Assembly: GCA_007376385.1 (NCBI GenBank)
Contig: VMGC01000002.1
Location: 136,372-200,371, forward strand
DNA from: Parcubacteria group bacterium Gr01-1014_8
GTDB taxonomy: Bacteria > Patescibacteriota > Minisyncoccia > Phycocordibacterales > UBA2100
Length of the DNA stretch: 64,000 nt
Direction: 5' to 3'
Part shown: positions 10,313-53,129 of the stretch, piece by piece
Position numbering within the stretch: position 1 is the first letter of the stretch
Layout: every line of letters begins with the position of its first letter
Notes under the pieces: model-generated
Seen by the model: only the letters and a program-made list of their open reading frames with translations
Databases searched by the model: none
Told to the model about the DNA's origin: nothing
Translations under genes and position numbers: made by a program

Positions 10313-12079
10313 ATGGTTTTGCTCATCCTCTCGTTCGTAGCAGGTGTACTAACAGTACTTGCACCTTGTATACTTCCGCTTCTGCCCGTCATCATTGGCG
10401 GCTCACTTGATCCGATGCGACACGTGCGTTTAAAGCATGCCACAACGGTTGTGCTTTCGCTCGGTGTTTCCGTTATTGTCTTTACGTTTCTTTTGAAAGT
10501 GAGCACTGCTCTTATATCTGTCCCGCCGCAGGTTTGGACGTATCTTTCGGGAGGCATTGTCTTTTTTTTCGGATTGACCTTACTTTTTCCCGGACTCTGG
10601 GAACATGTGCCGTTCATCGCAAAACTTAGCAGCCGTTCGAACCGGCTGGTTTCGACTGGCTATCAGAGGAAGAGTTTTTGGGGAGACATTTTGATAGGCG
10701 CAGCACTCGGACCGGTATTTGCGACGTGTTCTCCCACATATTTCATAGTTCTCGCGACAGTATTGCCGCAAAGTCCTGTCCTCGGCTTTGTGTATGTATT
10801 GGCGTACGTTCTCGGACTTTGTCTGATGTTGCTTCTTATCGGTATCGTCGGCCAGCGTCTTGCGGATAGCCTCGGATTTGCTTCTGATCCGCACGGAAGT
10901 TTCAAGCGCATACTTGGCGTCATATTCATGATAGTCGGGCTCGTGATCATTATGGGCTTCGATAAGAAATTTCAGATCAAGCTATTGGAGTGGGGTATAT
11001 TCGATATTACCAAAGTGGAGCAGCGGCTGTTGCAACTCACTGATCCGAATGCAAAAGGACTTGTTCCGAGCCAATCCATTGCCATTTTGGATGAAGAAAT
11101 GCGCATCGCGCAGAAAGAGAGGCTGTACGAACGAGCGCCAGAAATTCAAAATCCCGCTGGCTATGTGAACACTGGCGGCAGACCTGTCACCATCGGTGAA
11201 TTCCGCGGGAAAAAAGTCGTGCTTCTCGACATTTGGACCTACAGCTGCATAAATTGCCAGAGAACCATTCCCTACCTTAAGGCATGGCACGAGACGTACA
11301 ATGATCAAGGATTACAGATAATCGGTATACATACGCCGGAATTTGCGTTCGAGAAGGACGCAAAGAATGTCGAATGGGCAGTTCGGCAATTCGGGATCAC
11401 GTATCCAAGTGTTCTGGATAACGATTATGAGACGTGGAAAGCACTCGGTAATAATTACTGGCCGCGAAAATATCTCGTGGACATCGATGGGTTCATTGTA
11501 TACGACCATATTGGTGAGGGAAATTACGAGGAAACTGAAGCAGCGATCCAGAGGGCTCTGCAGGAGAGGGCGATGGTGGTGGGTAGTGAAATGCCTGGTA
11601 AAAAGATCGTCGCGGAAGAGATCCCTCAAGCTGATCTATCGGGAGTGCGTTCGCCGGAAACGTATTTTGGAGCTTTGCGAAACGAGAGTTTAGCCAATGG
11701 TGATCCGCAGACCATCGGTGTTGAAACGTATATACTGCCAGAAAATATCATAGGAAATGCGCTCTATCTGGAAGGGATATGGGATTTGACCCCGGAATAC
11801 GCGGGATCGAAGGGAAGGACAAAGATAGTCTACAAATATAATTCGCGGGATGTATACCTTGTGGCGAGTAGCGACAAAGGAGTGAAAATAACTGTCCTTC
11901 GAGATGGGAAGCCCGTTGGCGAATTTGCGGGTGCAGATATTGACCAGACAACAAGCACCGGGACGATCAAAGAAAACAAGCTGTACAAATTGGTGCATGA
12001 CGATGAGCCAGGACAACATCTACTTGAAATAGTCATAGAAGGCGAGGGGGTAAAGGCGTACGCGTTCACATTCGGTTGA
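10313..12079 (+). CDS. CcdA/DsbD-type membrane thiol-disulfide transporter fused to a TlpA-like thioredoxin domain and a C-terminal domain (DipZ-like)
   Basis: LAPCILPLLP CcdA motif with multi-TM N-terminal half; redoxin domain with the CINC active site (DIWTYSCINCQRTIPYL); approximately 170-aa C-terminal extension. Confidence 0.8.
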   Translation: MVLLILSFVAGVLTVLAPCILPLLPVIIGGSLDPMRHVRLKHATTVVLSLGVSVIVFTFLLKVSTALISVPPQVWTYLSGGIVFFFGLTLLFPGLWEHVPFIAKLSSRSNRLVSTGYQRKSFWGDILIGAALGPVFATCSPTYFIVLATVLPQSPVLGFVYVLAYVLGLCLMLLLIGIVGQRLADSLGFASDPHGSFKRILGVIFMIVGLVIIMGFDKKFQIKLLEWGIFDITKVEQRLLQLTDPNAKGLVPSQSIAILDEEMRIAQKERLYERAPEIQNPAGYVNTGGRPVTIGEFRGKKVVLLDIWTYSCINCQRTIPYLKAWHETYNDQGLQIIGIHTPEFAFEKDAKNVEWAVRQFGITYPSVLDNDYETWKALGNNYWPRKYLVDIDGFIVYDHIGEGNYEETEAAIQRALQERAMVVGSEMPGKKIVAEEIPQADLSGVRSPETYFGALRNESLANGDPQTIGVETYILPENIIGNALYLEGIWDLTPEYAGSKGRTKIVYKYNSRDVYLVASSDKGVKITVLRDGKPVGEFAGADIDQTTSTGTIKENKLYKLVHDDEPGQHLLEIVIEGEGVKAYAFTFG

Positions 12080-22251: not shown

Positions 22252-22317
22252 TTTATTTCCGAGCCGAGGAGCAAACACAGGTTCAATACCTCGGAGCTTG
22301 CTCCGAAGAACCTTTAT
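22252..22317. repeat. Dispersed palindromic repeat, copy 2 (orientation opposite to copies 1 and 4)
   Basis: ATTTCCGAGCCGAGGAGCAAACACAGGTTCAATACCTCGGAGCTTGCTCCGAAGAACCTTTAT. Confidence 0.6.
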
Positions 22318-24931: not shown

Positions 24932-25501
24932 ATGCTCATCCTTACTCGCATGTTCTTCCTAGCTCCGCTTTTTGCTCTAACGTTGCTTCTTTTGCCCAGC
25001 GCGGTTTTAGCGCACGGCGGCGAATCGCTCACATTTACCAGCACGACGACAGAAGGATACGTTGTCGACGTTGACATTGAAGATGGATATCTTGAGGCTG
25101 ACTCTTTTACCCGCATTGATTTCGGGCTCTTTAAGGATGCCGCGCGCTCCAAAAGCGCAGATTTCACTGATATGTGGGTTCGCATCGTGAAAAAAGACGG
25201 GAGCAAAGCCGGCCAGACGCTCTTTGCGGGCGCAATTGCTAAACAGCAGATCGGGGGCAACGGTTTCTCGTTCGTATTTCCAGAAGGAGGAGTCTATGCG
25301 CTCAGCGTTCGGTATAATGATGCAAGCAAGGAGAAGTATGGTGATATTGTTGGGGAGGCGGAATTCGAGTTTGAAGTTTTGCGCAGCCCTGACGAGAACG
25401 CATTCAATGTTGGCATGGAGTTTTGGGTCGGATTGATGATCGGGGCTTTTGCACTTGCAACCCTCTGTGTACCGCTGTTTCTCAGAAGGAAAGTACCCTG
25501 A
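24932..25501 (+). CDS. Secreted hypothetical protein with a signal peptide and a C-terminal TM anchor
   Basis: Hydrophobic N- and C-termini. Confidence 0.45.
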   Translation: MLILTRMFFLAPLFALTLLLLPSAVLAHGGESLTFTSTTTEGYVVDVDIEDGYLEADSFTRIDFGLFKDAARSKSADFTDMWVRIVKKDGSKAGQTLFAGAIAKQQIGGNGFSFVFPEGGVYALSVRYNDASKEKYGDIVGEAEFEFEVLRSPDENAFNVGMEFWVGLMIGAFALATLCVPLFLRRKVP

Positions 25502-25560
25502 TCGCAGGCGAGGATGCTTCTTTCTGGTGCTCTTATCTGCCGTTTTCTGCACATAAACAT

Positions 25561-25989
25561 ATGCTGATCGAGCTGTTCGGACAGAGCATTCTTTGGGGAA
25601 CGCTTCTGCTGTTCACGCTTGTGTGGAGACCGATACATATGGTGGCCGTATGGGATGAGACCTCTGTAAAGAACATCGAACGAATATATTCGTTGCTTAT
25701 ATTTTTCGGCGTCACTACCGGCATACTTGGAAGTATCGCGACAGTGTCCTGGGGTGTGTTTCTGTTCTCACGTGAAAAAGGGTTTCCGTTCTACGAGGTT
25801 TTTGCACAATTCTTAAAGACTGACCTTGCCTCTATGGCAGTGTATCGCGCGCTTCTTCTTGCACTCCTATTCAGTATATTTATCGTCGGTTGGAAACATA
25901 TTTTTGGAGCAAAGATCTTCTCTGTGTTTGAAGCATTGTTATTCGCATGTCTCTTTGCGTCGAGCTATGCGCTCTGGCTTTATTGGTAA
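25561..25989 (+). CDS. Hypothetical multi-TM membrane protein
   Basis: 4 hydrophobic helices; start taken at the MLIELFG Met after the upstream gene's stop. Confidence 0.4.
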   Translation: MLIELFGQSILWGTLLLFTLVWRPIHMVAVWDETSVKNIERIYSLLIFFGVTTGILGSIATVSWGVFLFSREKGFPFYEVFAQFLKTDLASMAVYRALLLALLFSIFIVGWKHIFGAKIFSVFEALLFACLFASSYALWLYW

Positions 25990-26004
25990 GCAAAGCGAGC
26001 TTGC

Positions 26005-26772
26005 CTAGAAGACAAAGAATAGAAAGATCAGCCCGAGTGCGATGCGATAGATACCGAACGAGATGAATGAGTGACTCTGCACGAAACGAAGGAGCCACAT
26101 GATACTGGCGGCTGCAACAACAAACGACAGAACGAATCCGATGGAGAGAGACATTGCTTGGTCGCTCGAGAATGTAGAATAATTTTTCAGCAGGTCGAGG
26201 CCCGTTGCGGCAAGCATCGTAGGGACCGCAAGCAAGAATGAGAATTCGACGATGGTTTTCCGCTTAAGTCCCAGCGCGAGTCCTCCGATGATAGTCGCAC
26301 CTGAGCGAGAAATGCCCGGGATCATTGCGATAGATTGAAACAGGCCTATGAGAACTGACTGTGTGTAGGAAATTGCAGAAACGGCGCCTGTCGCGCTATC
26401 AGTTTCATGGTGGAAGTATTCAAACGCAATGAGCGCAATACCGCCGAGAAGCAACGTCCACACAACTAACTGTTCGCTGCCCAAGAGATACGTTTTTATT
26501 GTGGAATACAGAAGGAGCCCAATAACTGCAGTCGGAATGAACGCGACAACAAGTCGTTTTAGTATCTCGACATCAAAAAATGACTTCCAATACAATGCGA
26601 TAACTGCGGCAATTGCTCCCGACTGAATGATTATTTCGAAACTTTTTAGAAATTCACTGTCAGGAAGGCCAAGAAGCGAGCTTGCCAGTATCAAGTGTCC
26701 GGTAGATGAAATTGGCAAGAACTCAGTCAGCCCCTCGACGACAGAGAGAATGACCGCATCAAATACGTTCAT
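26005..26772 (-). CDS. uppP: Undecaprenyl-diphosphatase (BacA/UppP)
   Basis: VVEGLTEFLPISSTGHL and PGISRSGATI motifs. Confidence 0.85.
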   Translation of the reverse strand: MNVFDAVILSVVEGLTEFLPISSTGHLILASSLLGLPDSEFLKSFEIIIQSGAIAAVIALYWKSFFDVEILKRLVVAFIPTAVIGLLLYSTIKTYLLGSEQLVVWTLLLGGIALIAFEYFHHETDSATGAVSAISYTQSVLIGLFQSIAMIPGISRSGATIIGGLALGLKRKTIVEFSFLLAVPTMLAATGLDLLKNYSTFSSDQAMSLSIGFVLSFVVAAASIMWLLRFVQSHSFISFGIYRIALGLIFLFFVF

Positions 26773-26788
26773 GGTAGTGATTCTATCA

Positions 26789-27820
26789 CTACCGCGCTCG
26801 CGGGATGCCTCCAGTGTCAACAGACTGCCCGTCAGTGGATAGAGCAGGCTCTGATACCGATGGTTCGCTCGCCGGCGTTCCGCCGGTTCCTTCTGCGCTG
26901 GTCGTCGTTGCTTCGACTATCGAAGGAGTACCCACGGTAGAATTTGTGGATCGGTTTGCTTTTGGTGCAGCCTTTGAGGGCGCACTTGGCACTAGAGGCT
27001 CATTTATTTCAGGTAATTGCTCTGTCTCCTCCATCACACGGGATGGATCCATGGGCTCTTCCTCTGGGAGAGCAGTCTGGATGCCGAGCATCAGACCAGC
27101 ACCGACGAGACCGGCAAGAATGTGCATATATGTGCCTCCGTTGCTCCGAACTGACGCGAGCGCGTGGGGCAAGAGGTCATGCAAGACAACAGACATAAAT
27201 CCTCCGGCGGCTATACCAGAAAATAGTGCGACGATCCAAGTCACTGATGACAGTGTGCTTGCAAGGAAAAAGCCGATGAGAATGGTGGAGGAAACGAGAA
27301 AACTCCGGGTCAGGGCTCCTTTATTGGAATATCCAGCCCCGCGTAGCACAAAGTACTCTGAGACCTCCTGCACCGTCTCATGGAGAACGACGCCGAGCGT
27401 TGCTGCAAGGCCGATGTACCAATTCGTCTCAAAAGCACCCACAAGCAGAATACCGTCCCCAATGTTATGCAGAGCGTCGCTAAAGAGCACGCTACGACCC
27501 TCTATGGGAGTGTGAGTGTGACTATTGTCAACGTCGTGGTGGTGGTGCTTTGTTGGAAAAATATAGTGAATTCCTTCCATAAGCGTTGCACCGATAAGTA
27601 CCGATATGACAGCGACCACCCAGCCGCCTGCGCGTACGGCCTCCGATGCAAGGTCAAATGCGACAAGAACAAACACGCCAGCAGAAAAGGTTGCCAAATA
27701 GGTCAGATATCGTTGCATCCACTGTCCCAGTTTTCCTGCGGAAAAGATGACCCCAATAAGAGATATCAGCATGACAAGAAGCGATGCGAGAAAAGCAGCG
27801 CTCGCAGCTGAAAAGTCCAT
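26789..27820 (-). CDS. ZIP-family divalent metal transporter with an approximately 90-aa Ser/Thr/Pro/Ala-rich C-terminal tail
   Basis: ZIP helices with the HNIGDG...GVVLHE pattern and a His-rich loop (HHHHDVDNSHTH); TACACT lies 10 nt upstream of the ATG. Confidence 0.8.
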   Translation of the reverse strand: MDFSAASAAFLASLLVMLISLIGVIFSAGKLGQWMQRYLTYLATFSAGVFVLVAFDLASEAVRAGGWVVAVISVLIGATLMEGIHYIFPTKHHHHDVDNSHTHTPIEGRSVLFSDALHNIGDGILLVGAFETNWYIGLAATLGVVLHETVQEVSEYFVLRGAGYSNKGALTRSFLVSSTILIGFFLASTLSSVTWIVALFSGIAAGGFMSVVLHDLLPHALASVRSNGGTYMHILAGLVGAGLMLGIQTALPEEEPMDPSRVMEETEQLPEINEPLVPSAPSKAAPKANRSTNSTVGTPSIVEATTTSAEGTGGTPASEPSVSEPALSTDGQSVDTGGIPRAR

Positions 27821-27832
27821 AATGGGTGTGAG

Positions 27833-27939
27833 TGTACCCCATGAGATAAGGACCCGCTATAGGCTATTCACAGGAAGCTACTTTTTGAAAGAAGAATTAC
27901 TCTAGCGAACGCCACCCGGTCTATCTCACGGGGTGTACC
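27833..27939. promoter_or_regulatory. Inverted pair of the TATCTCAYGGGGT(A/G)TAC motif (RC copy at 27833-27847, direct copy at 27923-27939) plus the direct repeat GGCTATTCACAG(G)AAG (27871-27889 and 27961-27977); the left copy doubles as the -10 region of the ZIP gene
   Basis: Read directly; the same motif pair is found at 52979-53085 and 60663-60768. Confidence 0.5.
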
Positions 27940-28090
27940 CCAGAGAGTAAAGACTCGCTACCGGCTATTCACAGAAGATATGCTGACAACAAAGTATGCA
28001 CATCATGCGGACCGTTTGCCTCTATCTACTATTGACACAGGGCCGGGTATGTATCCGAGTATTTTCCTTAAAACTTGACGGAACAAGTGA

Positions 28091-28128
28091 AATGTCCGAT
28101 AGGAATGTCCATGAGGATGTCTGATGGG
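28091..28128. repeat. Three tandem 13-bp units (AATGTCCGATAGG / AATGTCCATGAGG / ATGTCTGATGGG) in a GACAG/TTGACAG-rich 520-bp intergenic region
   Basis: Read directly. Confidence 0.6.
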
Positions 28129-28346
28129 ACAGGTTGATGATCAGAGCTGCCTTAGTAAGGGACAGACCGACAGAATGGACTGGATATAGGACGTCATGTA
28201 TGCCGGAATTGACAGTCAGTAAAATTGTGTTGTTTCGGACATTTTATCGTCAACTTTCGTTGACAGGGATTGTACCGCGCGTACTGTTACGGACAGCGCT
28301 CTTTTAATTTACGCTATTACTAAAGATTAATTATAAATACGAGCAT

Positions 28347-29606
28347 ATGACGTTGTTACGTTTGGCACGTGTGGGAGGTGTTGCGGCTTTTGCTGTTCTC
28401 TTGTTCACACTCGTTTCGTTTGTGGGAAACCAGCGTCTTGCTTACGCAGATGAGGTGCCCGTTTCGGGCTCTGACATTGTGTGCGACACGTATCGTCAAC
28501 TGCAGGAACAGGGATTGCCGATCCCTCCAGGACTCGATGTGAGCGGTTGTGAAGGAGGTGGGGGAGGCGGCGGTGGTGGCGAACCGCCACTACCAACGGT
28601 TACAGAGTGCATAGACGGTATTGATAACGACGGAGATGGACGTACCGATTTTCTTCCGATATACGGCGACCCCGATTGTGATAACTTCTCTGATGATAGC
28701 GAGGCGGCGAGCGGAGGAGGCGGCGGTGGCGGTTCTACTCCAGCATGTGCCGATGGCATTGATAACGACGGCGATGGGCTCGTAGATAGTGTTGACCCGG
28801 GCTGCTCAGACACTTCCGATACTGACGAGGCCGATCCTACGGGGGGCGGCGTAGGAGGTGGTGGAGGTGGCGGAGGCGGAGGCCCCGCAGCGGCGTGCGA
28901 GGACAGCATAGACAATGACCTCGATGGTCTTAAAGACATGCAAGACCCAGGGTGTGAAAATGCTTCTGACAACGACGAAACCAACGGTTCTGGTGGAGGA
29001 GGAGGCGGCGGGGGAGGTGGCGAGGCAGCGACGACAACGGCACCAACTCCAGAAATTCTCGGCGCATCAACGCCAGCACAGGAACTTTCGTGCGACTCCT
29101 ACCTGACGGCATTCATTCGCTTCGGCGGAAAGAATGATGCAGACCAGGTTATGCGCCTCCAGAAAGTACTCAAAGATTACGAGAAGGCGGATGTGAATGA
29201 AAATGGTACCTACGATGCTGCAACTCTCAAGGCAGTACATGCATTCCAAACAAAGTATGCCGATGAAATTCTTACACCATGGGGTATCAAGAGCTCGACA
29301 GGCTATGTGTATCTCACGACGCGAAAGAAAGTGAATGAAATTCGGTGCGAGAATAAGAAGACATTTCCGCTTTCGGAAGAAGAACAGAAGAAAGTCGAGG
29401 AAACACGGGTTTCTGCGGCAGTCAGGGACATCGGCACAGACGCATCTCCCGCAAAACCAGCGGAGCCAGCAAAACCTGCAGTAGTAAAAGCTAAAGATGT
29501 AACGGACAGGACCGCCGATTCATCGTCAAAAGACGAGACAGTGCAGGTGAGCGGATTGAAGAGGGTGTGGGATTTCCTCGGCAGAATGTTCAACAGAGCG
29601 CGCTAA
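28347..29606 (+). CDS. Secreted protein with four C-x-DGIDNDGDG-x-D...DPGC Ca/metal-binding repeats (MopE-like) separated by poly-Gly linkers, plus a C-terminal peptidoglycan-binding (PG_binding_1-like) domain
   Basis: Signal/TM N-terminus; repeats TECIDGIDNDGDGRTD, ACADGIDNDGDGLVD, ACEDSIDNDLDGLKD; G8-12 runs; C-terminus LQKVLKDY...TLKAVHAFQTKYADEILTPWGIKSSTGYVY. Confidence 0.7.
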   Translation: MTLLRLARVGGVAAFAVLLFTLVSFVGNQRLAYADEVPVSGSDIVCDTYRQLQEQGLPIPPGLDVSGCEGGGGGGGGGEPPLPTVTECIDGIDNDGDGRTDFLPIYGDPDCDNFSDDSEAASGGGGGGGSTPACADGIDNDGDGLVDSVDPGCSDTSDTDEADPTGGGVGGGGGGGGGGPAAACEDSIDNDLDGLKDMQDPGCENASDNDETNGSGGGGGGGGGGEAATTTAPTPEILGASTPAQELSCDSYLTAFIRFGGKNDADQVMRLQKVLKDYEKADVNENGTYDAATLKAVHAFQTKYADEILTPWGIKSSTGYVYLTTRKKVNEIRCENKKTFPLSEEEQKKVEETRVSAAVRDIGTDASPAKPAEPAKPAVVKAKDVTDRTADSSSKDETVQVSGLKRVWDFLGRMFNRAR

Positions 29607-29884
29607 ACGAAATCAAATCGTACAGAAACGACGCCATATTCTGGCGTCTTTTTTGTCCTATACCAACTATGACACTCTGTCCTTAGTGGTGCGCATAGAT
29701 TCTGCAGCGTTGACAATAATGGACGGACTTTGTACGATGCGCGCCGTTAGAGACAAACATCTCCCGTTCCTTGTCATTTTTTGTAGGAGGTCAGGGCGGG
29801 CCCAAAGCCGACAGCTTTCACGCTGGTTTCCCTAGGTTTTGGGCCCACCCAGGATTCCTACATGATCACGTAAAATATTATACA

Positions 29885-29922
29885 GGGAAGATAAAAAAGG
29901 CCGCGTTGAGCGGTTTTTTTAT
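29885..29922. terminator. Bidirectional terminator-like hairpin (AAAAAAGGCCGCGTTGAGCGGTTTTTTT)
   Basis: A-run/stem/T-run read directly. Confidence 0.5.
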
Positions 29923-29961
29923 TGGCGACGTAGAGCGAGTGAAATGAACGTGTACTCATGT

Positions 29962-30033
29962 TCATTTCCGAGCCGAGGAGCCAACATAGGGTCGAATGCC
30001 CCGCGGCTTGCCCGCGGAATGAATACCCTTTAT
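29962..30033. repeat. Dispersed palindromic repeat, copy 3 (most diverged)
   Basis: ATTTCCGAGCCGAGGAGCCAACATAGGGTCGAATGCC...CCTTTAT. Confidence 0.5.
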
Positions 30034-30458
30034 TGCAACTCATTATAAAAAAATATCAATGGTGTTTGACAACAAGCATGAATACGTATCGAAATACTTT
30101 TCCACATGGCTAATTCATTGACACTCCACGAGAACGCGCGATAATTCGCCTACGTTTCGTCGCGTGCGCAAAATGCGATAAAGCGAGGGGAACCAGCGGA
30201 CAATATGTCCGTTGAGAACATTTTTTTTACTCACAGCTGTCTTTTTGAAATGAAGAGACGAGGCATCGCTGACCGTGATGCGTCGTTTTTTATTATGCAA
30301 ATGGACGACTGAAGTCCATGGAGCGGCTTATTTCCATGAAATGAGCCGCTCCGTGAACTGCAAGGTTCATGAGAAAGGTCGAGTTCTGCATTGCGCCGTC
30401 CGTACGGAGGCACAATGTCAGGTTTATCAAAACTTATCAACATGAAAAATTCAAAGAT

Positions 30459-31355
30459 ATGACTAAGACTATGAAAATCGGTGCAGTTCTTGCAACAAGC
30501 GCGATGGTTTTGTCGCAGTTCGCAGCAATTCCTGCATACGCATGTGAGGACTGGTGCTGGGGCGAAGGAAGCTCTGACGACAACAGCGTCTACATAAAGG
30601 TTTCGAACTCAGGCACAATCTACAACGAAACTAAAGCTAAGGCAGACACTGGCGACAACGATGCCGGCGGAAGCTACGGCGGCGACGGCGGCTCTGCTGG
30701 AGACGGTGGCGACGGCGGCGAAGCTGATGTGGAAGGCGGTGTTAATTGGTGCGGAGAGTGCAGCGACGGATCGGACAGCGAAGCAAACGGAGGCGACGGC
30801 GGCAACGGCGGCGACTCGAACGGCGGCGATGCAGGTCCGGGTGGGCTCGTAGACACTGGGGATGCTGACGCAAACGCAGGAACAGTCAACACACTCAACA
30901 CGACCGATATCGCAGTTGAGGGATGTGGCTGTGAGGATGACCAGGATGAGTGCGGATGCATTCCTCCATGGCTCCGACGCGACGTTGACAACAGCGTCCG
31001 CGTGAAGGTCCACAACGACGGCACGATCAACAACGAAACTAAAGCTAAGGCAGACACTGGCGACAACGATGCCGGCGGAAGCTACGGCGGCGATGGTGGC
31101 GGCGATTGTCACTGTGACGGCGGTGGCGACGGTGGCGACGGCGGTGACGCTGAAGTTGGCGACGACGAAGAGGGCTGTGGTTGTGAATGGGACATCGGTG
31201 GCGGCGGCACAGCAAACGGCGGCGACGGCGGCGACGGCGGAGACGCTGACGGCGGCGACGGCGACGTAGGAGGCACGATCCGAACGGGCGACGCTCGATC
31301 GGACGCTGGCACTGTGAACGTGATGAACACGACTCTTGTTCGTGTAACTCGCTAG
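30459..31355 (+). CDS. Secreted acidic Gly/Asp-rich, Cys-containing repeat protein (two approximately 130-aa modules with a near-identical 65-bp DNA duplication)
   Basis: Signal peptide MKIGAVLATSAMVLSQFAAIPAYA; repeated NETKAKADTGDNDAGGSYGGDGG and TGDA..AGTVN..NTT blocks; CGEC/CGCE/CHCD Cys pairs. Confidence 0.6.
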   Translation: MTKTMKIGAVLATSAMVLSQFAAIPAYACEDWCWGEGSSDDNSVYIKVSNSGTIYNETKAKADTGDNDAGGSYGGDGGSAGDGGDGGEADVEGGVNWCGECSDGSDSEANGGDGGNGGDSNGGDAGPGGLVDTGDADANAGTVNTLNTTDIAVEGCGCEDDQDECGCIPPWLRRDVDNSVRVKVHNDGTINNETKAKADTGDNDAGGSYGGDGGGDCHCDGGGDGGDGGDAEVGDDEEGCGCEWDIGGGGTANGGDGGDGGDADGGDGDVGGTIRTGDARSDAGTVNVMNTTLVRVTR

Positions 31356-31416
31356 TTCACGCATCTCTGGAGAGAGAACCTCTGTTCTCTCTCTGGGGTG
31401 GGTGGGAGGGAAGTCA

Positions 31417-34263
31417 ATGCTTCCCCCCTCTCATGAGATCTTGCAATTTAGCCGAGGTCTCATTAGGAGGGAACTAAAGCGTGGCTCTATGTATACATAT
31501 AAAGATGTTGGAATAGTGTGGGTGACCGCGTTCGTACTTGCGGGCGTGATTATTTTAACTGGCGGAATGCCTGGAGTGTTGGCATTTGCACAGGAGGCGG
31601 AAGCACCGCCTGCATACGCAGAGGCGGCGTACTACGCCGAAGCGAGCTACTATGCGGAGGCCGCGTATGAGCCAGCGCCCGAGCCTACTCCGGAGGTGCA
31701 GGCGCAAACTCAAGAAACAATTAATCCTAATGAGAACACAGGCTCGGAAGGAACTGATGGGCAGCCGGATGCTGCACCTCCTCAAGATGGGGAGAACGGC
31801 GACGATAGTACGCCGACAGATCCAGCGACCGACGGAGAGCCAGGCCAGGACAACAATGCACCAGTGGATCCACCGGCAGCTGATGGAACGCCGACAACAA
31901 TTAATACGGGTGATGCGTCTGCGGATTCAACATCAACGGATGCAGGGAACCTGACAAACATAGACACACCTGCTCCGGACCCGAACACCTATCCGTATGG
32001 AAAACCACCAGCATGGTTCATCGCTGCATGTGAAAAATATCCGCAACCCAAGTGCGAGAAATACATCGTTAAACCTCCTCCGACAACGGTTGTAGTGAGC
32101 GACGATATCGTGCTTGAGAATGGGGGGGAAGCAGTCGCAGAGACTGGAGAAAATACAGCAGTGGACCCTGAAGGCGTCTCTATCACGACAGGAAATTCTG
32201 ATGCGTTCGGCTACCTCATCTCGCTCTTTAACGTTGTTGTGACGAATTCAACCGGCTCGATACTCTTCCTCAAGAACCCGCTTTCGAGCGCCCTCGACTT
32301 CACGCAGCGTATCATGGACATTTTCAACAATCTTGCCGGAGGAGACGGCGACTGTACGCTCCTTGGCTGCTCAATTTCTGACGCGGTCTTCAATCTCATC
32401 ACTGATGATACGGCGACAGTCTCGAATGAGCTTATTGTTCGAGCGGGGACCGGAGCGAACGCCGCGACGTCTACCGACGGCGTAGCAAGCATCGACACGG
32501 GAAATGCGAACGCGTTCGGAGGTATCGTGAACTTCGGCAACCTTCAGATAGTCGATTCGCGCTACATGATAATCCTCATGACCAACCAGGGCGACCTGTC
32601 AGGGAACATCGTTCTTCCTGAAGCTGAATTTTTCAGGCAGCTCTCCACGGGAGCGAAATTCGGAAGCGCGAGCTCGTTCGATACGACGAACGGCGCTGAT
32701 GTGACGAACGATGGAACGGCGAATGCGGATACGGGAGACAACGCCGCAGTTGCATCCTCAACTGAGGAGATAGCGCAGATACACACCGGAGAGGCGGATG
32801 CTGATGCCTCCACGATAAACTTTGTGAACCAGATAGGCGCTCCTATCTGCTTTATCGTGAACGTAGGCGGCAGGTGGCGCGGAGATGTAAAGCGTCTCCC
32901 AGAAGGCTTCTCTCGCGAGCAGACTGAATTCGGCGAGATAATCTGTGGAGCGGGAACAAACACAGATAGACCTGGCGCGCGTGACAACTTCCACGCGACA
33001 ACGACAAACTATGCAAAAGTATTGAACAAGGCGATCGTCGAAGCAACGACAGGGGCGAATGCAGCAGCAGGCGCGGCGGCGCGGATCAACACAGGCGACG
33101 CTGATGCGTTCGTGCAGATCCTCAACGTCTTGAACCAGAGCATCATCGGACAAGACTGGATATTCGCTCTTTTCACCGTAACAGGCGATTGGAACGGCAA
33201 CCTCATATTCGGCGCAGACCCGGCAGTGCCTGGCAGCGGCGGCGGGGATGTCCTCACGCAGATCGCAGCATCAATGCTCGCAGGCGCAGGCGGCGGCCTG
33301 CCTGGTGGATACACATCTGACCCGAAATTGTCTGTCACAAAAACAGCGAATGTAACGAGCGCAAAGGCTCCTGCGAAAGTCGATTACACGGTCGTGGTGA
33401 AGAATGACAAGGGGGGAGGCGCAGCATACCGCGCAGTGCTCTCGGATATTCTCGTTGAACCTTCGAAGGGCTCACGGATCTCTACACGCTGGTGGAATCT
33501 TGGAACCGTGAAAGAGGGCGAGGAAATAACGCTCACCTACACCATCGAGTACAACGAAGAGATACCGTACGGTGTGTATGAAAACACTGCGACTGTCTCG
33601 GGCTACAAAAACAGCTCGATCTATGTCGCGCCAAATCCATTCGACCAAATTTCTGCGACGGCAAGCGTCGAGATAAGCGGAGGAGAGATATTGGGAGTGC
33701 AGACAACGAACTCGTGCAAACCTCTTCTCAAGGGCTTTGTCAAGGTTGGGCAGAAGAATTCTCCTGAGGATGTGCGTAACCTGCAGACATTCCTCTTGGT
33801 TTCTGAAGGCGACCAGATAGGGGCTTCGGGTGTGTACGACCAGAAAACAATAAATGCCGTAAAAAAGTTCCAGCAGAAATATGCCGAGTACATCTTGACG
33901 CCATGGGGAGTAACAGAGCCGACAGGAAATGTGTACTACACGACACAACACACCATCAACAATATGTACTGCCGAGGTTCGGGCGCGTTCTCGCTCTCCG
34001 CGGATCAAGTGAGTGAAATAAACGGGTTCAAGGCAAAGTACACGAATCCGCTTCCGAATGTTCCTAAGCCGGACCCTATCATCGAGGGAGTGGGACAAAT
34101 ACAGAAAAAGATGAAGCCTCCGGTGACACTCGAGCTCCCGAAAATAGTCCCCGCGTCGGCGCTCCTAAAGTCGTTCGCTCCGACTTCTAATGCAGGAAGA
34201 TCGAATGGGCTTGGCAAGTGGATGAAATCAATGATGCCGTTCGTCGAGGCGGGAGAAGAATAG
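31417..34263 (+). CDS. Large (approximately 950 aa) membrane-anchored surface protein with T-G-(D/N)-A-x-A repeats, a DUF11-type conserved-repeat domain and a C-terminal PG_binding_1-like domain
   Basis: GGGAGGG SD 7 nt upstream; N-terminal TM; DUF11-like LSVTKTANVTSAKAPAKVDYTVVVKND...NTATVSGY; C-terminus FQQKYAEYILTPWGVTEPTGNVYYTT is paralogous to that of the gene at 28347. Confidence 0.7.
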   Translation: MLPPSHEILQFSRGLIRRELKRGSMYTYKDVGIVWVTAFVLAGVIILTGGMPGVLAFAQEAEAPPAYAEAAYYAEASYYAEAAYEPAPEPTPEVQAQTQETINPNENTGSEGTDGQPDAAPPQDGENGDDSTPTDPATDGEPGQDNNAPVDPPAADGTPTTINTGDASADSTSTDAGNLTNIDTPAPDPNTYPYGKPPAWFIAACEKYPQPKCEKYIVKPPPTTVVVSDDIVLENGGEAVAETGENTAVDPEGVSITTGNSDAFGYLISLFNVVVTNSTGSILFLKNPLSSALDFTQRIMDIFNNLAGGDGDCTLLGCSISDAVFNLITDDTATVSNELIVRAGTGANAATSTDGVASIDTGNANAFGGIVNFGNLQIVDSRYMIILMTNQGDLSGNIVLPEAEFFRQLSTGAKFGSASSFDTTNGADVTNDGTANADTGDNAAVASSTEEIAQIHTGEADADASTINFVNQIGAPICFIVNVGGRWRGDVKRLPEGFSREQTEFGEIICGAGTNTDRPGARDNFHATTTNYAKVLNKAIVEATTGANAAAGAAARINTGDADAFVQILNVLNQSIIGQDWIFALFTVTGDWNGNLIFGADPAVPGSGGGDVLTQIAASMLAGAGGGLPGGYTSDPKLSVTKTANVTSAKAPAKVDYTVVVKNDKGGGAAYRAVLSDILVEPSKGSRISTRWWNLGTVKEGEEITLTYTIEYNEEIPYGVYENTATVSGYKNSSIYVAPNPFDQISATASVEISGGEILGVQTTNSCKPLLKGFVKVGQKNSPEDVRNLQTFLLVSEGDQIGASGVYDQKTINAVKKFQQKYAEYILTPWGVTEPTGNVYYTTQHTINNMYCRGSGAFSLSADQVSEINGFKAKYTNPLPNVPKPDPIIEGVGQIQKKMKPPVTLELPKIVPASALLKSFAPTSNAGRSNGLGKWMKSMMPFVEAGEE

Positions 34264-34299
34264 AGCACCGAGGCGCTTTCAGCGCCCAGTTGTAGTAGA

Positions 34300-34947
34300 A
34301 TGCCACCCTATATGAAGTATGTTCTCACATCCCTCGTTCTACTCCTCGTTCCAGGCGTCTCGTTTGGGGCGGGGCTTGCGGCGAGTACCGATGGCATCAT
34401 CTACAGGCAGGCGAGCGTTACTGTCTCCAATAGCCTGCCTGCCGCGTCGAGTGCGGCGCAGGCAGGCGGCTCCATCAATAGCAACACAAGTTCGTCGGCA
34501 TCGAGCGGGGGAAATTCAGTAGGAAGCGGCCTGCCCGGCCAGGGTGGCTCTGTAACCACCGGAAATGCAAGCGCATCTGCTTCGACTGAAGTTACCAGCG
34601 ATGGCAGCGGTGGCAGTGTAAAAGTGAAAGTGGAGACAGACAGTGGAGATGGGAAAAAAGTCGAGGAGTATCAGAAAGACCTAAAGGCTGGGGAATCAAT
34701 TGATGTAAGCGTCGAAGCGACGTCGAAAAGCGGAGGAGGGACGTCCGAAAGCAGTGTCAAAGTAACAGCGAACGGCTCCGAGGTCGCAACGTCAAGCGCA
34801 ACGTCCACTGATGCCGCAACTCCCATGGCGGAGGCTGTCGCAATGGAAGCTTCGGCCTCGTCCAGTCTAGGTAAGATAACATTCACCAACATATTTGCAG
34901 GTATTAAGAGCGCATTCCACGGATTCTTGAACTTCTTTGGTTTCTAA
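34300..34947 (+). CDS. Secreted Ser/Gly/Thr-rich low-complexity protein with a hydrophobic C-terminus
   Basis: Signal peptide; TGNASASASTEVTSDGSGGSVKV-type repeats resembling the adjacent proteins. Confidence 0.5.
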   Translation: MPPYMKYVLTSLVLLLVPGVSFGAGLAASTDGIIYRQASVTVSNSLPAASSAAQAGGSINSNTSSSASSGGNSVGSGLPGQGGSVTTGNASASASTEVTSDGSGGSVKVKVETDSGDGKKVEEYQKDLKAGESIDVSVEATSKSGGGTSESSVKVTANGSEVATSSATSTDAATPMAEAVAMEASASSSLGKITFTNIFAGIKSAFHGFLNFFGF

Positions 34948-35959
34948 GCAGGTTACAATAGGGTACATGGCGCGACCGAGCGTTGAGCGAGGAAGTACTG
35001 AGCGTAGCAACGCGAATGTGCGCCCAAAGCGCAAGAGCCGAAATAAGATATCGCATGTGATCTTGCCGTTGCCGGAAAACGGCCACCATCCGCATCTTCT
35101 TCGCGGCCCCACCGTGATGACGGTGCTGGCCGTTGTGAGCGTTCTCCAAATAGGGTTCTTCGCTTACCAATTCACATTCCTTTCATCGAGCGTGAACATA
35201 GCGAGCGTGCTACCGGGGGCCATCGCACTTCTCTCAAATACTGCGCGTGCAGAAGCAGATAGTTTGCCTCTCGAGATCAGTCCCGTTTTAGCCGGAGCTG
35301 CGCAAAAAAAAGCCGAGGATATGGCGCAAAAAGGCTATTTTGCACACAAAGAGCCCAATGGCGACATGCCATGGCATTGGTTCACAGAGGCCGGATACAA
35401 CTATGTATACGCAGGCGAGAACTTGGCGGTGAATTTTTCTGACACGAAACAGCTTGTTGATGCATGGCTAGCGTCTCCGGCGCATCGCGACAATATTTTG
35501 AAACCGCAATACACCGAGATAGGCATCGGCATGGCGACTGGTACATACAAGGGAAAAGAAGCAATATTCGTAGTCCAATTTTTTGGAGCAGAACAAGATT
35601 CACGTTATGCAGTTTCAAATACAGATACAGTTGAAGACGTGGCAAAAATAGATGCCGCAACTTCATCCGTTCTCGGGGAACAGGTCAGCAACGCGAGCTC
35701 TGCTGGTTCGCTTTTGGACAATGTGAGAATTTCTCCGCGGACGTATGCCATCCGCACGCTGATGTCGCTTATCGCGCTGTTCGCAGCGTTGCTCGCGTTC
35801 AGTCTGATGCCCGCGTTCCGTGCGCATCCTCGGGCGGTTATGAATGGTTTCCTGGTCATTACGGTCCTTGTTTTCTTTTACGCATTCCAAGACGGATTTT
35901 TTGGAAGGACAGTGCTCTCGGATGAGGCGCAAGCAGCAACGGTAGCGTCAGTGTTATGA
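34937..35959 (+). CDS. CAP/SCP-domain (YkwD-like) protein flanked by N- and C-terminal TM helices
   Basis: CAP domain blocks GYFAHKEPNGDMPWHW, GENLAVNF, HRDNILKPQYTEIGIG. Confidence 0.7.
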   Translation: MVSKQVTIGYMARPSVERGSTERSNANVRPKRKSRNKISHVILPLPENGHHPHLLRGPTVMTVLAVVSVLQIGFFAYQFTFLSSSVNIASVLPGAIALLSNTARAEADSLPLEISPVLAGAAQKKAEDMAQKGYFAHKEPNGDMPWHWFTEAGYNYVYAGENLAVNFSDTKQLVDAWLASPAHRDNILKPQYTEIGIGMATGTYKGKEAIFVVQFFGAEQDSRYAVSNTDTVEDVAKIDAATSSVLGEQVSNASSAGSLLDNVRISPRTYAIRTLMSLIALFAALLAFSLMPAFRAHPRAVMNGFLVITVLVFFYAFQDGFFGRTVLSDEAQAATVASVL

Positions 35960-37524: not shown

Positions 37525-37695
37525 ACCACTCCTTCGGGGTTGGGTGAAAGTCCCAATCGGCGGTATAGCCCGCGAGTTCTTAGGGACACGATTTGGTGAG
37601 ATTCCAAAGCCGACCGTACAGTCGGGATGAAAGAAGGAAGCGAGGCACCCTTGTTGGATGCTTGCGTGGTAACCCCGATGGATCGGGGTTTTTTA
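37525..37695 (+). ncRNA. FMN riboswitch (RFN element) with a terminator expression platform (AACCCCGATGGATCGGGGTTTTTT at 37671-37694)
   Basis: GGGTGAAAGTCCCAATCGGCGGTATAGCCCGCGAG...GATTTGGTGAGATTCCAAAGCCGAC...AGTCGGGATGAAAGAAGG matches conserved FMN aptamer blocks; upstream of the rib operon. Confidence 0.85.
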
Positions 37696-37700
37696 TTTAT

Positions 37701-38288
37701 ATGTTTACAGGAATTATCACACATACCGGGACTATCTCTCGTACATCTCCATCAAAGATTGCGATTCGTGCAGATCGCGATTTTGTGCAAAAGTTGGGTT
37801 ACGGCACCAGCGTTAGTGTGGGCGGAGTATGTCTCACCGTTATCTCAAAAAATAGCGATTCGTTTTCGGCGGACATTATGCCGGAAACCGCACGGCGTAC
37901 TACCTTGGGAAGTCTTCATCGCGGTGACTTGGTAAATTTAGAGCATCCGGCAACCCCCTTGTCGTTCCTTTCGGGTCACATAGTGCAAGGTCATATCGAT
38001 GGTATAGGGACATTACGGCAGATCCGTGCGCACAAGATGGGTTGGATCGTGTCGATCGCCTCTCCGGCAGCTCTCCTGCGCTACATCGTCGCGAAGGGAT
38101 CGATAGCGGTAAATGGCATTTCACTTACGGTCATCGGAAGGGGCCGCTCATACTTCACGGTAGGTATAATCCCTCACACATGGAAAACCACGACGTTCCA
38201 TGAACTCGCGCAGGGGAGCAGTGTCAACATTGAAGTGGATGTCCTCGCAAAGTATGTCGAGACATTTGTTCGGGATCGCCGCATATGA
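37701..38288 (+). CDS. ribE: Riboflavin synthase (alpha subunit)
   Basis: MFTGIITHTG N-terminus and internal duplication typical of riboflavin synthase; the track ORF starts upstream, inside the riboswitch. Confidence 0.85.
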   Translation: MFTGIITHTGTISRTSPSKIAIRADRDFVQKLGYGTSVSVGGVCLTVISKNSDSFSADIMPETARRTTLGSLHRGDLVNLEHPATPLSFLSGHIVQGHIDGIGTLRQIRAHKMGWIVSIASPAALLRYIVAKGSIAVNGISLTVIGRGRSYFTVGIIPHTWKTTTFHELAQGSSVNIEVDVLAKYVETFVRDRRI

Positions 38289-38728
38289 AAAAGATCGGCG
38301 ATATACGGATCGGCATCATCGGAAGCTCTTTCCGAGAGAATATCACTGCAGAACTTGAAAAACGTTGCGTGAAAACACTTCGAGTACGAGGGATATCAAA
38401 AGAACACATTCACCTTGTACGTGTTCCTGGTGCCTTCGAGATACCGCTTGTTGCAAAAAAAATGGCAATGCAGAGAACATACGACGCGCTCATAACATTT
38501 GGTGCGATCCTTAAAGGAAAAACGTACCACTTCGAACAAATAGCGAATGAGTGTGCGCGCGGCTGTGCCGAGGTGTCGCGTGCGTACGATATTCCTATTA
38601 TCTTCGAGGTGCTCGCGGTCTACGATCTGAGGGATGCGCTCGAACGCGCAACACGACCACATGAAAACAAAGGCGTCGAAGCGGCTGAATCTGCTTTAGC
38701 CATGATCAAGCTCATGTCGTCGCTATGA
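38285..38728 (+). CDS. ribH: 6,7-dimethyl-8-ribityllumazine synthase
   Basis: VPGAFEIP motif; approximately 147 aa. Confidence 0.9.
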   Translation: MKKIGDIRIGIIGSSFRENITAELEKRCVKTLRVRGISKEHIHLVRVPGAFEIPLVAKKMAMQRTYDALITFGAILKGKTYHFEQIANECARGCAEVSRAYDIPIIFEVLAVYDLRDALERATRPHENKGVEAAESALAMIKLMSSL

Positions 38729-39951
38729 ATCACTTTTCCACCATACCGGAGGCGATCGCTGAAATAAAGAAAGGAAAGCTCCTCATCGTTGCTGATAGTC
38801 CAAAGCGGGAGAATGAAGCCGATTTTTTTATTCCAGCTGGGGGAGTAACGCCCACAGCCATCACAACCATGGTTACGTACGGCGGCGGCCTTGTCTGTGT
38901 TGCTATTACGAGCGCACAAGCCAGGCGTTTGCACGTACCTCTCATGGTTTCGCCCGGCGAGAATACTGAAAAAACGGGCGTAAATTTTACGGTGTCGGTC
39001 AATGCAAGACGAGGTATCACAACGGGAATTTCTGCATTCGATCGAGCGAAAACGATCCGCATTCTCGCTGATCCGCACTCGAATGAACAGGACATAGTAA
39101 AGCCTGGGCATGTCTTCGGTCTCGTTGCTCGTGACGGCGGTGTGCTCGAACGGGAGGGACATACTGAAGCTGCAGTCGATCTCTCGCGCCTTGCGGGGAA
39201 AATGTCTGCCGGCGTCTTGTGCGAAATTGTTGGAAGAAACGGACACATGGCGAAACGAGACGAACTCATCCGGCTGTCGCGGAAGCTTGATATAAAGATG
39301 ATAACAATACGCGACCTTGCGCGCTACCTTCGTGCACATCCTCTGCCGTTGCTCCCCAAACATCATGGTCTCGTGCGCGTCTCCTCTGCCGCGCTGCCGA
39401 CCGCATACGGCACGTTTACTGTCGTCGCTTACAGATCTATTTTGGATAATCGAGAGCATGCAGCTCTCATTCTTGGGGAACCGCGGGGAAACGCCTTGGT
39501 GCGCATTCATTCCGGATGTCTTACGGGTGATGCTCTGTTTTCACTCCGTTGCGACTGCGGCTCGCAGCTGGCGAAAGCCATGCGAATGGTGCAAAAAGCG
39601 AAGCAAGGTGTCATTGTGTATCTAAATCAGGAAGGCAGGGGGATCGGTCTTGGGAACAAGATCAAAGCATACGCGCTGCAGGATGAGGGATACGATACGG
39701 TAGAGGCGAATCACAAGCTGGGGCTGCCTGCCGATCCGCGCAGCTATGAGGCGGCGGCGGATATTCTCAAAGATCTCGGCATACGCGATGTGCGCCTTCT
39801 CACGAATAACCCCGAAAAGGAGAAGCAGCTTTCACATTTCGGCATAAGAATTACGCAGCGCATTCCGCTCGAGATCCCGCCGAATGGTGTGAATGCAGCA
39901 TATCTCAAGACGAAGAAGCAGAAACTAGGGCATACGCTCTCCAATGTGTAG
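38725..39951 (+). CDS. ribBA: Bifunctional 3,4-dihydroxy-2-butanone-4-phosphate synthase / GTP cyclohydrolase II
   Basis: DHBP synthase N-half (RENEADF) and GCH-II C-half (CDCGSQL Zn motif). Confidence 0.9.
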   Translation: MNHFSTIPEAIAEIKKGKLLIVADSPKRENEADFFIPAGGVTPTAITTMVTYGGGLVCVAITSAQARRLHVPLMVSPGENTEKTGVNFTVSVNARRGITTGISAFDRAKTIRILADPHSNEQDIVKPGHVFGLVARDGGVLEREGHTEAAVDLSRLAGKMSAGVLCEIVGRNGHMAKRDELIRLSRKLDIKMITIRDLARYLRAHPLPLLPKHHGLVRVSSAALPTAYGTFTVVAYRSILDNREHAALILGEPRGNALVRIHSGCLTGDALFSLRCDCGSQLAKAMRMVQKAKQGVIVYLNQEGRGIGLGNKIKAYALQDEGYDTVEANHKLGLPADPRSYEAAADILKDLGIRDVRLLTNNPEKEKQLSHFGIRITQRIPLEIPPNGVNAAYLKTKKQKLGHTLSNV

Positions 39952-51314: not shown

Positions 51315-51371
51315 AGGTTCCTTGAAGCAAGCTCCGAGAGCTCGAACTCGTGTTTGTTCCTCGGCTCGGAC
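51309..51371. repeat. Dispersed palindromic repeat, copy 4 (contains the uvrB TAA stop)
   Basis: AAATAAAGGTTCCTTGAAGCAAGCTCCGAGAGCTCGAACTCGTGTTTGTTCCTCGGCTCGGACAT. Confidence 0.6.
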
Positions 51372-51450
51372 ATGCATATAAGTACACATGCATATCACTC
51401 GCTCTACGTCGCAAATAAGGCATAATGAAAAGCAATTTAATACTGGTGCC

Positions 51451-52978: not shown

Positions 52979-53085
52979 GTATACCCCGTGAGATAAAAAG
53001 GTCTCAAAATTATGCGGCAAGCGCACATGTACTCAAAATTCCTTTTTTTGCCTATAGTCACGGGCTATCTCATGGGGTATACTCG
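52979..53085. promoter_or_regulatory. Inverted pair of the TATCTCAYGGGGTATAC motif (RC copy at 52979-52995, direct copy at 53066-53085, which includes the TATACT -10) between the divergent Imm genes and uvrA
   Basis: Read directly; same architecture as at 27833-27939 and 60663-60768. Confidence 0.55.
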
Positions 53086-53092
53086 TCCGTGT

Positions 53093-53129
53093 CCCCGGTA
53101 CCACAAGTCCTTCGGACTTGACTACGGGG
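53093..53129 (+). ncRNA. Second copy of the 37-nt leader hairpin motif (CCCCGGUACCACAAGUCCUUCGGACUUGACUACGGGG) in the uvrA 5' UTR, followed by a second hairpin (CCCCTCG...CGAGGGG)
   Basis: Paralogous to 23009-23045 with a compensatory C:G to U:A change in the stem. Confidence 0.5.

Follow-up and report, generated by a model that had tools for sequence, protein, structure and literature searches.

What do five adjacent genes for exported repeat proteins build in a parcubacterium, and do they form a unit at all? The question is raised by positions 28347-35959 of a 64,000-nucleotide stretch of the metagenome-assembled genome of Parcubacteria group bacterium Gr01-1014_8 (GenBank assembly GCA_007376385.1, contig VMGC01000002.1, positions 136,372 to 200,371, forward strand), which as a whole is called the window here and whose numbering is used throughout. 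The genes, g1 to g5, had been singled out in an earlier note, made from the letters of the sequence, as a candidate wall-attached surface layer, fibre or adhesion apparatus. They proved to be a cluster of cell-envelope genes that spans the Parcubacteria (Patescibacteria) lineage; the shared beta-module, the gene set and the RNAs of this cluster are absent from Pfam, NCBIfam, the PDB, Rfam and the literature that was searched. We regard it as evenly balanced whether the cluster specifies a peptidoglycan-tethered extracellular structure, namely a surface coat or fibre consisting of an anchored scaffold and small subunits that assemble with it, their expression being coordinated by RNA. Much of bacterial diversity is contributed by Parcubacteria and their relatives, hardly any of which are in culture. 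Cryo-electron microscopy (cryo-EM) of Parcubacteria shows a thick coat resembling a surface layer (S-layer), to which no proteins have been assigned, and the cluster supplies named candidates for it.

A conserved gene cluster of the parcubacterial envelope

All five open reading frames (ORFs) were confirmed on the plus strand of the window, and export signals or membrane helices are present in every product, in agreement with the earlier description of five consecutive genes for secreted or membrane proteins. Twenty-seven loci from Kaiserbacteria, Paceibacterota, Minisyncoccia and Taylorbacteria share this order of genes amid unrelated neighbours; 21 loci were obtained from a scan of species-representative genomes and more from a metagenome scan, the combined table holding 27. 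In the recurrent order, all on one strand, an acidic-repeat gene with a PG-binding domain is followed by two RNA elements, a g2-like gene, g3, g4 and a CAP gene, with a second g1-like gene sometimes lying between g4 and the CAP gene. On three long contigs the five-gene order is the same, and on two of them the flanking genes are completely different. Since one order is kept amid differing flanks, the g1-g5 cluster is therefore a unit. Homologues of g3 were found in Kaiserbacteria, Minisyncoccia and other Patescibacteria. The earlier note had named in advance two outcomes that would speak against its proposal, a lack of synteny in relatives and a confident mapping of the proteins to unrelated families. 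Neither came about: the order is conserved in relatives, and no known system explains the combination. That five unrelated genes stand side by side by chance was rejected because the order recurs across the 27 loci.

The rate at which the genes diverge bears on the kind of role they have. When the window was compared with L001, a Kaiserbacteria locus, identity was 69% for both g2 and g3, 56% for g1, 55% for g5 and 47% for g4, against 70% for the adjacent lysyl-tRNA synthetase (LysRS). With g2 and g3 diverging at about the slow pace of LysRS, a structural role in the envelope is favoured over that of a fast-evolving adhesin.

The putative scaffold g3

Domain scans, an AlphaFold2 model and a hidden Markov model (HMM) together suggest that g3 (31402-34263, plus strand) is a wall-anchored scaffold. 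It has 953 aa, or 924 aa from the NCBI start at 31489, and its ORF is 100% identical to the protein G01um10148_567. The N-terminal part comprises a signal or anchor helix, a disordered acidic Pro/Thr-rich spacer and half a module (31894-31962); four beta-modules of about 70 aa occupy the middle (32077-33219), and the C-terminal part holds an immunoglobulin-like (Ig-like) CLIPPER/DUF11 domain (33325-33678), a PG_binding_1 domain (33685-34044) and a conserved tail (...PFVEAxE). The model, built from a 34-sequence alignment, had a predicted local distance difference test score (pLDDT) of about 85-92 over residues 228-603, 642-759 and 788-881, with block values mostly of 80-92 within residues 228-603.

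The second of these regions (pLDDT about 90), a CnaA-like beta-sandwich, corresponds to the DUF11/CLIPPER family (PF01345; 32.2 bits, cutoff 24.6), and in a Foldseek fold comparison covering the PDB and viral sets this Ig-like domain matched CARDB 3idu, CLIPPER 9ifr and RbmA. Residues K647 and N728 are conserved in at least 90% of 34 orthologues and D682 is invariant, and the spacing of Lys647, Asp682 and Asn728, which alone was compared, is similar to that of the isopeptide triad K715/D748/N806 of 9IFR. The third region, residues 788-881, is the helical PG_binding_1 domain (PF01471), which scored 23.0 bits, exactly at the gathering cutoff of 23. The tails of g3 and g1 both have the three-helix PG-binding fold, which in g3 is closest to the targeting domains of SleB and endolysins, and are paralogous (39% identity over 115 aa, E=7e-23). 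A protein of about 950 aa with a DUF11 domain and a PG_binding_1-like tail paralogous to that of g1 is what had been described from the letters, and this is borne out.

A beta-module shared by g3, g2 and, weakly, g4

In the AlphaFold2 model the four modules of g3 are similar all-beta units, each with a strand of about 20 residues, two short strands and a hairpin of 16 and 9 residues. A module HMM built from g3-family modules only (consensus ...NTAEVTNTATVTAETGENTAEG..GASIKTGDADAFANIINLVNQNI...) matched g2 at E=1.3e-13. It matched g4 weakly and at the level of a motif (domain i-E 0.005, full E 7.8), and the family alignment of g4 keeps SSASTGGNxV...VxTGxASAS together with an aromatic C-terminal tail. 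The module is thus distributed as four copies and a half in g3, two split copies in g2 and one degenerate copy in g4. The earlier note had seen a TGxAxA...N..N flavour in all three proteins; judged by the profile match, this flavour is homology between g2 and g3, and for g4 a likeness of motif.

No match to the module was found in Pfam or the PDB by sequence and profile searches, those of the PDB with g2, g3 and the module being empty or returning spurious Gly-linker matches, and the Curlin_rpt, chaplin and TasA models had no Pfam or NCBIfam match in g2, g3 or g4. A word-indexed search with the 70-aa module profile gave one match and was uninformative, and an exhaustive profile search was used. 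Among 1.84 billion representatives, which are protein clusters at 50% identity, it returned 3165 proteins at E<=1e-3, of which 816 reach E<=1e-30. The best 150 of the 3165 all carry 4-9 module stretches, mostly five, and most are 800-1100 aa long; ten sampled module proteins contain, besides the unannotated module region, only DUF11 and PG_binding_1. The stretch counts and the domain content of the sample therefore indicate that the module is a large undescribed domain family of fixed architecture. What is offered for the parcubacterial envelope is accordingly a family of >3000 clusters at 50% identity on a new module, plus fixed partner genes.

The secreted partners g2, g4 and g1 and the membrane protein g5

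The ORF of g2 is open from 30369, with its real start at about 30459, which gives a secreted protein of 298 aa (30459-31355, plus strand). Its acidic, Gly/Asp/Cys-rich composition (G 24%, D 15%, C 4%) and its two duplicated halves, visible in the DNA as a repeat 81% identical between 30579-30726 and 30987-31134, are as they had been described. Each half is a beta-module copy interrupted by a (GGxGGD)n insert; a CGC/CxC cluster lies between the halves, and the protein ends in RVxR. The Cys residues are not universally conserved in the family alignment. The Gly/Asp inserts did not match the Pfam HemolysinCabind (RTX) model, and by eye do not keep the nonapeptide register (GGxGxDxUx). In almost every locus the module HMM finds a g2-like ORF of 220-300 aa immediately before g3.

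The secreted protein g4 (34300-34947, plus strand, 215 aa; ORF, composition and family alignment) is Ser/Gly/Thr-rich, as claimed, with S 19% and G 13%. It is made up of a single, degenerate module core (SSASSGGNSV...VTTGNASASA), a middle part rich in beta structure and, at the C-terminus, a conserved tail that is aromatic and hydrophobic, and it follows g3 in most loci that have sequence there. Neither g2 nor g4 had a match in the Pfam and NCBIfam domain scans.

The secreted acidic protein g1 (28347-29606, plus strand, 419 aa) was delineated by its ORF, domain scans and paralogy. A signal peptide (AYA|D) is followed by acidic repeats (about 28602-28946), a PG_binding_1-like domain (about 29052-29396) and a Lys/Pro/Ala-rich tail. 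Four MopE-like repeats and a PG_binding_1-like tail had been proposed. There are three canonical C-x-DGIDNDGDG-x-D...DPxC repeats, with poly-Gly between them, and they belong to the NCBIfam family NF033662, 'acidic double-disulfide repeat' (61.2 bits, cutoff 41, E=5.4e-17, three stretches), whereas Pfam MopE gave no match at E<=0.1. The tail stands, at 20.3 bits against PF01471, below the gathering cutoff of 23. In most loci the g1 orthologue precedes the RNA elements, and directly after g1 a terminator-like hairpin with a T-run (29630-29655, plus strand) is a predicted intrinsic terminator by consensus match.

The last gene, g5 (34937-35959, plus strand, 340 aa), encodes a membrane-embedded CAP/SCP-domain protein according to its ORF and the domain scan. 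Its match to PF00188 is clear (72 bits, cutoff 21.1), and one N-terminal and two C-terminal hydrophobic helices surround the CAP domain (about 35237-35578), which bears out the claim of a membrane-flanked CAP/SCP protein. It scored far below the curated NCBIfam cutoffs for YkwD (TIGR02909; 95.7 against 171) and DalA (NF052539; 47.6 against 200). A CAP ORF lies downstream of g3 or g4 in 13 loci. In the window the stop of g5 and the start of lysS overlap by 4 nt (ATGA, 35956-35959), and lysS directly follows g5 in L001 and L002 too, but not in L003 and L005; the operon probably runs on into lysS in the lineage of the window.

A hairpin RNA in the g1-g2 gap

Between g1 and g2 lies a gap of about 700-860 bp, without a called gene in all loci, and a four-genome alignment reveals conserved nucleotide blocks in it. 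The earlier note had described this gap as hairpins and a repeat copy; the repeat copy is there, and two conserved structured RNAs, RNA-A and RNA-B, had been missed. A hidden ORF was rejected as an explanation of the gap, the longest ORF wholly inside it being of 61 aa and not conserved, whereas the nucleotide blocks and stems are.

RNA-A is an 81-nt hairpin (29782-29862, plus strand), identified by covariation, a covariance model and a fold z-score of -5.95. Its apical region, CAGCUUU..GCUGGUUUCCCUA, is invariant and contains the loop GCUGGUUUCCC, and below it is a long covarying stem in which 19 of 25 pairs show compensatory changes across 13 loci; there are 29 pairs overall. In the alignment 92% of the cells are paired, none of 500 shuffles reached the observed covariation and slid controls collapsed. 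The covariance model gave positions 29776-29872 a score of 89.5 bits, compared with 39 bits for the reverse strand, and these strand-specific scores, together with the G·U pairs, place RNA-A on the gene strand. A promoter-like TTGACA-17-TACGAT lies upstream (29710-29738, plus strand; a consensus match, aligned with L001), and a terminator-like hairpin with an A-run, a stem and a U-run follows (29894-29920, plus strand; minimum free energy structure). No Rfam match was obtained for RNA-A or for RNA-B and the g2 leader at the gathering threshold in the window, nor at E<=1 in 27700-30500, and literature searches on the cluster, the RNA motif and structured RNAs of the candidate phyla radiation (CPR) returned nothing specific and no mention of the motif.

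A DNA-pattern scan of metagenomes yielded 120 loci, of which about 60% were chance matches that were removed by hairpin energy and the covariance model. Genes of the cluster stood in the expected geometry at 33 of 47 strong-hairpin metagenome loci, compared with 1 of 73 chance pattern matches. The set of RNA-A and target sites is also present in L001, L003, L005, L008, L012, L014 and L016-L021 and in about 45 metagenome loci. At a further locus, L145 (reverse strand, 10543-10636), an RNA-A-like hairpin of 57.8 bits with a downstream complement precedes, instead of g2 and g3, a polysaccharide-deacetylase-like protein of 883 aa with a PG-binding motif; in some lineages the RNA may thus control different wall genes.

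Sites complementary to the RNA-A loop

The exact complement of the loop, GGGAAACCAGC, lies in the coding sequence of g1 at +77 from the ATG, among the codons of the signal peptide (target site 1; 28424-28434, plus strand). The g1 gene of the window, that of L001 and those of 11 other loci all have this 11-mer at +68 to +80. Its reading is xxG GGA AAC CAG CGT in every case, with its synonymous positions invariant, and the residue before it varies (L/W/Q/M/V) while the third base of its codon is always G.

A second site lies in the leader of g2. Its promoter, TTGACA-16-GATAAT (30118-30145, plus strand; 11 of 12 consensus positions), has hexamers that are invariant in the four-genome alignment and recur in most metagenome loci at a spacing of N16/17. 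Target site 2, GGGGAACCAGC (30187-30197), with an overlapping hairpin P2, extends over 30187-30214 (plus strand) and forms one G·U pair with the RNA-A loop; GGGAAACC is single-stranded, and AGCG enters P2. The site lies about 45 nt after the promoter, between two hairpins, and then comes a strong intrinsic terminator, predicted at 30253-30291 (plus strand) and with a visible equivalent in most loci; the start codon of g2 follows the site at a distance of 250-450 nt. The terminator can be read in two ways, as an attenuator or as the 3' limit of a discrete RNA-B of about 140 nt. Downstream of it the 5' untranslated region (UTR) of g2 contains hairpin c (GAAGUCCAUGGAGCGGCU...AGCCGCUCCGUGAACU; 30313-30359, plus strand), which is conserved with compensatory changes, and hairpin d (GCAUUGCGCCGUCCGUACGGAGGCACAAUG; 30385-30422, plus strand), which is nearly invariant in 8 loci and, in closer relatives, precedes the g2 ATG by about 40 nt.

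Of 61 loci, 52 have a complement of the loop downstream of RNA-A, exact in 41 and with one mismatch in 11, at a distance of 180-515 nt in 49 loci and of 1.5-2.1 kb in three. Leader sites present only as a variant (GGGGAACCAGC, GGGAAAUCAGC, GGGAAACCGGC) all keep the pairing through G·U, and some leaders carry 2-3 tandem copies of the motif. In L013 the RNA-A has diverged (4527-4643, 36.5 bits) to a loop GCUGGUCUUCUC, and a matching GAGAAGAUCUGC lies 175 nt downstream (4756-4767); GAGAAGAYC occurs within 16 kb at these two places only. Loop and leader site have both diverged and still match, and therefore loop and target have co-varied. The g1 homologue of L013 is without the GNQR site. RNA-A thereby combines a conserved structure, an accessible seed, complementary conserved sites and seed-target covariation, as a base-pairing small RNA (sRNA) does. 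The linkage to the cluster and the complementary sites thus make the RNAs integral to it, linking g1 to the g2-g5 operon.

What the cluster may build

In the structure that we propose, g3 would be anchored in the wall through its C-terminal domain, with its four modules facing outward. Sharing this module, the small secreted g2 and g4 would add onto g3 by beta-sheet extension to give a coat or fibre, acidic Asp/Gly-rich segments of g1 and g2 may bind Ca2+, bridging the assembly or making it rigid, and the membrane CAP protein g5 could be an assembly or anchoring factor. Pairing of RNA-A would tune the translation or stability of the g1 mRNA together with read-through of the leader terminator or the stability of the g2-g5 transcript, and would thus couple the output of g1 to the g2-g5 transcript. 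The kind of system is familiar, wall-anchored surface proteins on one hand and a base-pairing sRNA on the other; its function we infer. As in S-layers, a wall-anchoring domain stands on a large exported protein, here the PG_binding_1 fold at the C-terminus of g3, and the cluster is a good candidate for the surface coat of Parcubacteria. The more specific version, a coat (S-layer or sheath) of the new beta-module in g3, g2 and g4, stiffened by Ca2+-binding acidic proteins and with its subunit stoichiometry set by a dedicated hairpin sRNA that pairs with the g1 mRNA and the g2-g5 leader attenuator, appears doubtful and is put forward tentatively. The two conserved RNAs would be a first concrete case, for this radiation, of a circuit in which an sRNA and a leader regulate genes.

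Several points weigh against the proposed structure. The g5 gene is absent from about one third of the loci with enough downstream sequence, g1-like genes shift position among loci, and lineages L022-L026 are without a canonical RNA-A. GNQR is invariant as protein as well, which means that the constraint on the g1 site is not purely on RNA, and the promoters and terminators of the g1-g2 gap are consensus matches only. The AlphaFold2 model of g2 is unreliable (pLDDT 46.6). Co-assembly of g2, g3 and g4 is suggested by analogy, and Ca2+ binding is predicted from DxDxDG-like motifs with the Pfam RTX and MopE models unmatched.

The proteins would, as the earlier note had it, build a layer, fibre or adhesion apparatus, and a conserved, co-oriented unit of exported products stands; of the three options, a classical fibrillar adhesin is disfavoured and a constrained structural role favoured, because of the housekeeping-like divergence, the single CLIPPER domain and the lack of an adhesive tip domain. 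It is rather unlikely that the cluster is a host-attachment apparatus in which g3 is a fibrillar adhesin holding an episymbiont to its host, with g1, g2, g4 and g5 as accessories. Parcubacteria are believed to live attached to hosts, g3 combines a wall anchor with a long disordered spacer at its N-terminus, and its CLIPPER/DUF11 domain is of a type typical of fibrillar adhesin stalks (10.1101/2025.04.25.650565). However, g3 has one such domain and no tandem stalk, known adhesive head or tip domain, no adhesin domain of Pfam or the PDB is matched by its N-terminal modules, g2 and g3 are conserved like LysRS where host-binding adhesins usually diverge fast, and the architecture of the module proteins is constant across >800 clusters. 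We consider it very unlikely that the cluster serves to buffer or sequester metals in the envelope, g1 and g2 capturing Ca2+, Cu or Zn in the wall and g3-g5 being unrelated wall proteins. The DxDxDG-type repeats of g1, the CxC/CGC clusters and 39% Gly+Asp of g2, and the neighbouring genes for a ZIP transporter (window), Fur, a cupredoxin and a multicopper oxidase (L001) and VIT1 and DsbB (L003 and L005) would fit such a role; but the flanking metal genes differ among loci and so lie outside the unit, g2 shares a structural module with g3 and has Cys residues that are not universally conserved, and the Pfam MopE and RTX models are unmatched.

Most unlikely of all is a complex for peptidoglycan remodelling or division, in which the PG-binding domains would target g1 and g3 to the wall and a YkwD-like CAP protein, g5, would act on the wall while the cell grows or divides. 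The nearness of the PG-binding fold to SleB and endolysin targeting domains, the weak likeness of g5 to YkwD (95.7 bits) and to DalA, a divisome lipoprotein (47.6 bits), and uppP upstream in the window and in L001 speak for it, whereas the Pfam and NCBIfam scans found no catalytic hydrolase or transpeptidase domain in g1-g5, g5 falls far short of the cutoffs of 171 and 200, and the coding capacity is mostly taken up by non-enzymatic repeat modules. A further alternative concerns the RNA part only: the 11-mer could be a DNA operator or protein-binding motif, with a regulator binding three sites in the locus. Its invariance in three places and the tandem copies in some leaders, which recall protein-titrating RNAs, are in keeping with this, yet we judge it unlikely. 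One copy lies in the loop of a covarying hairpin whose G·U pairs would be mismatches on the other strand, the covariance-model scores are strongly strand-specific, the leader variants are all wobble-compatible and the loop and site of L013 have co-diverged.

Comparison with known systems

Two-part surface assemblies are known from the chaplins of Streptomyces, with the long wall-anchored ChpA-C and the short secreted ChpD-H, and from the CsgB/CsgA pair of curli. The cluster resembles both in that a large anchored protein with several module copies has small secreted proteins with one or two copies as neighbours, and this long-anchored and short-secreted arrangement supports templated surface assembly. 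In contrast to them, g2-g4 have no sequence relationship to either (Pfam chaplin and curlin models unmatched), anchoring is by a non-covalent PG_binding_1 domain and not by sortase or an outer-membrane secretion channel, and the cluster is without dedicated secretion or assembly genes. With Gram-positive S-layer proteins g3 has in common that it is large, acidic and exported, with a wall-binding domain, beta-rich domains and possible Ca2+ dependence; it differs in that its anchor is PG_binding_1 rather than SLH or CWB2 and that it has no recognisable lattice-forming domain, and the multi-protein make-up of the cluster, with small partners, is unusual for S-layers.

The repeats of g1 contain the DNDGDGxxD Ca2+-loop signature, as do NF033662, thrombospondin type-3 and MopE-type DxDxDG repeats. 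Unlike NF033662 proteins, g1 is fused to a PG_binding_1-like domain and has a putative sRNA target site in its signal-peptide codons, features that are specific to the cluster. On the RNA side, countertranscript attenuation and trans-acting sRNAs are exemplified by RNAIII of pT181 and pIP501 and by the RNAI/RNAII kissing loops. RNA-A is like these in being a stable hairpin whose loop is complementary to a single-stranded leader stretch just upstream of an intrinsic terminator. It is unlike them in that RNA-A and its targets are on the same strand and apart, by 200-500 nt for the leader and 1-5 kb for g1, and is therefore not cis-antisense; moreover, one target lies inside a coding sequence, and no Rfam family matched. 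The CLIPPER/DUF11 adhesins (10.1101/2025.04.25.650565) share with g3 a bona fide domain and conserved Lys, Asp and Asn residues at isopeptide-triad-like spacings, but g3, with its single domain, has no tandem stalk and no known tip and diverges at a housekeeping rate.

Neighbouring features of the window

In several genomes the cluster has genes for metal homeostasis or disulfide formation in its vicinity (ZIP, Fur, YibE_F, cupredoxin, multicopper oxidase, DsbA, VIT1 and DsbB), at 24932-27820 in the window, at 1363-4590 and 14748-18769 in L001, and upstream in L003 and L005; they may form a loose functional neighbourhood that differs between loci. The intergenic region upstream of g1, correctly noted as repeat-rich, measures 526 bp and includes a 42-nt direct repeat, 79% identical between 27832-27873 and 27933-27974. 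The repeat is not conserved in L001, where the upstream neighbour of g1 differs.

A dispersed intergenic repeat with the core TTTCCGAGCCGAGGAGC occurs in four copies in the window, at 8963-8979 (minus strand), 22256-22272 (plus), 29965-29981 (plus) and 51356-51372 (minus), against 0.25 expected. Its copy in the g1-g2 gap sits inside a window-specific insertion of about 110 bp that is absent from L001. Further downstream, an FMN riboswitch (37526-37642, 104 bits) lies upstream of riboflavin genes (37593-39951). A further large repeat-containing protein of the window is encoded by an ORF of 928 aa at 53012-55798, with an internal 32-nt repeat that is 91% identical between 54401-54432 and 55442-55473, 1041 nt apart.

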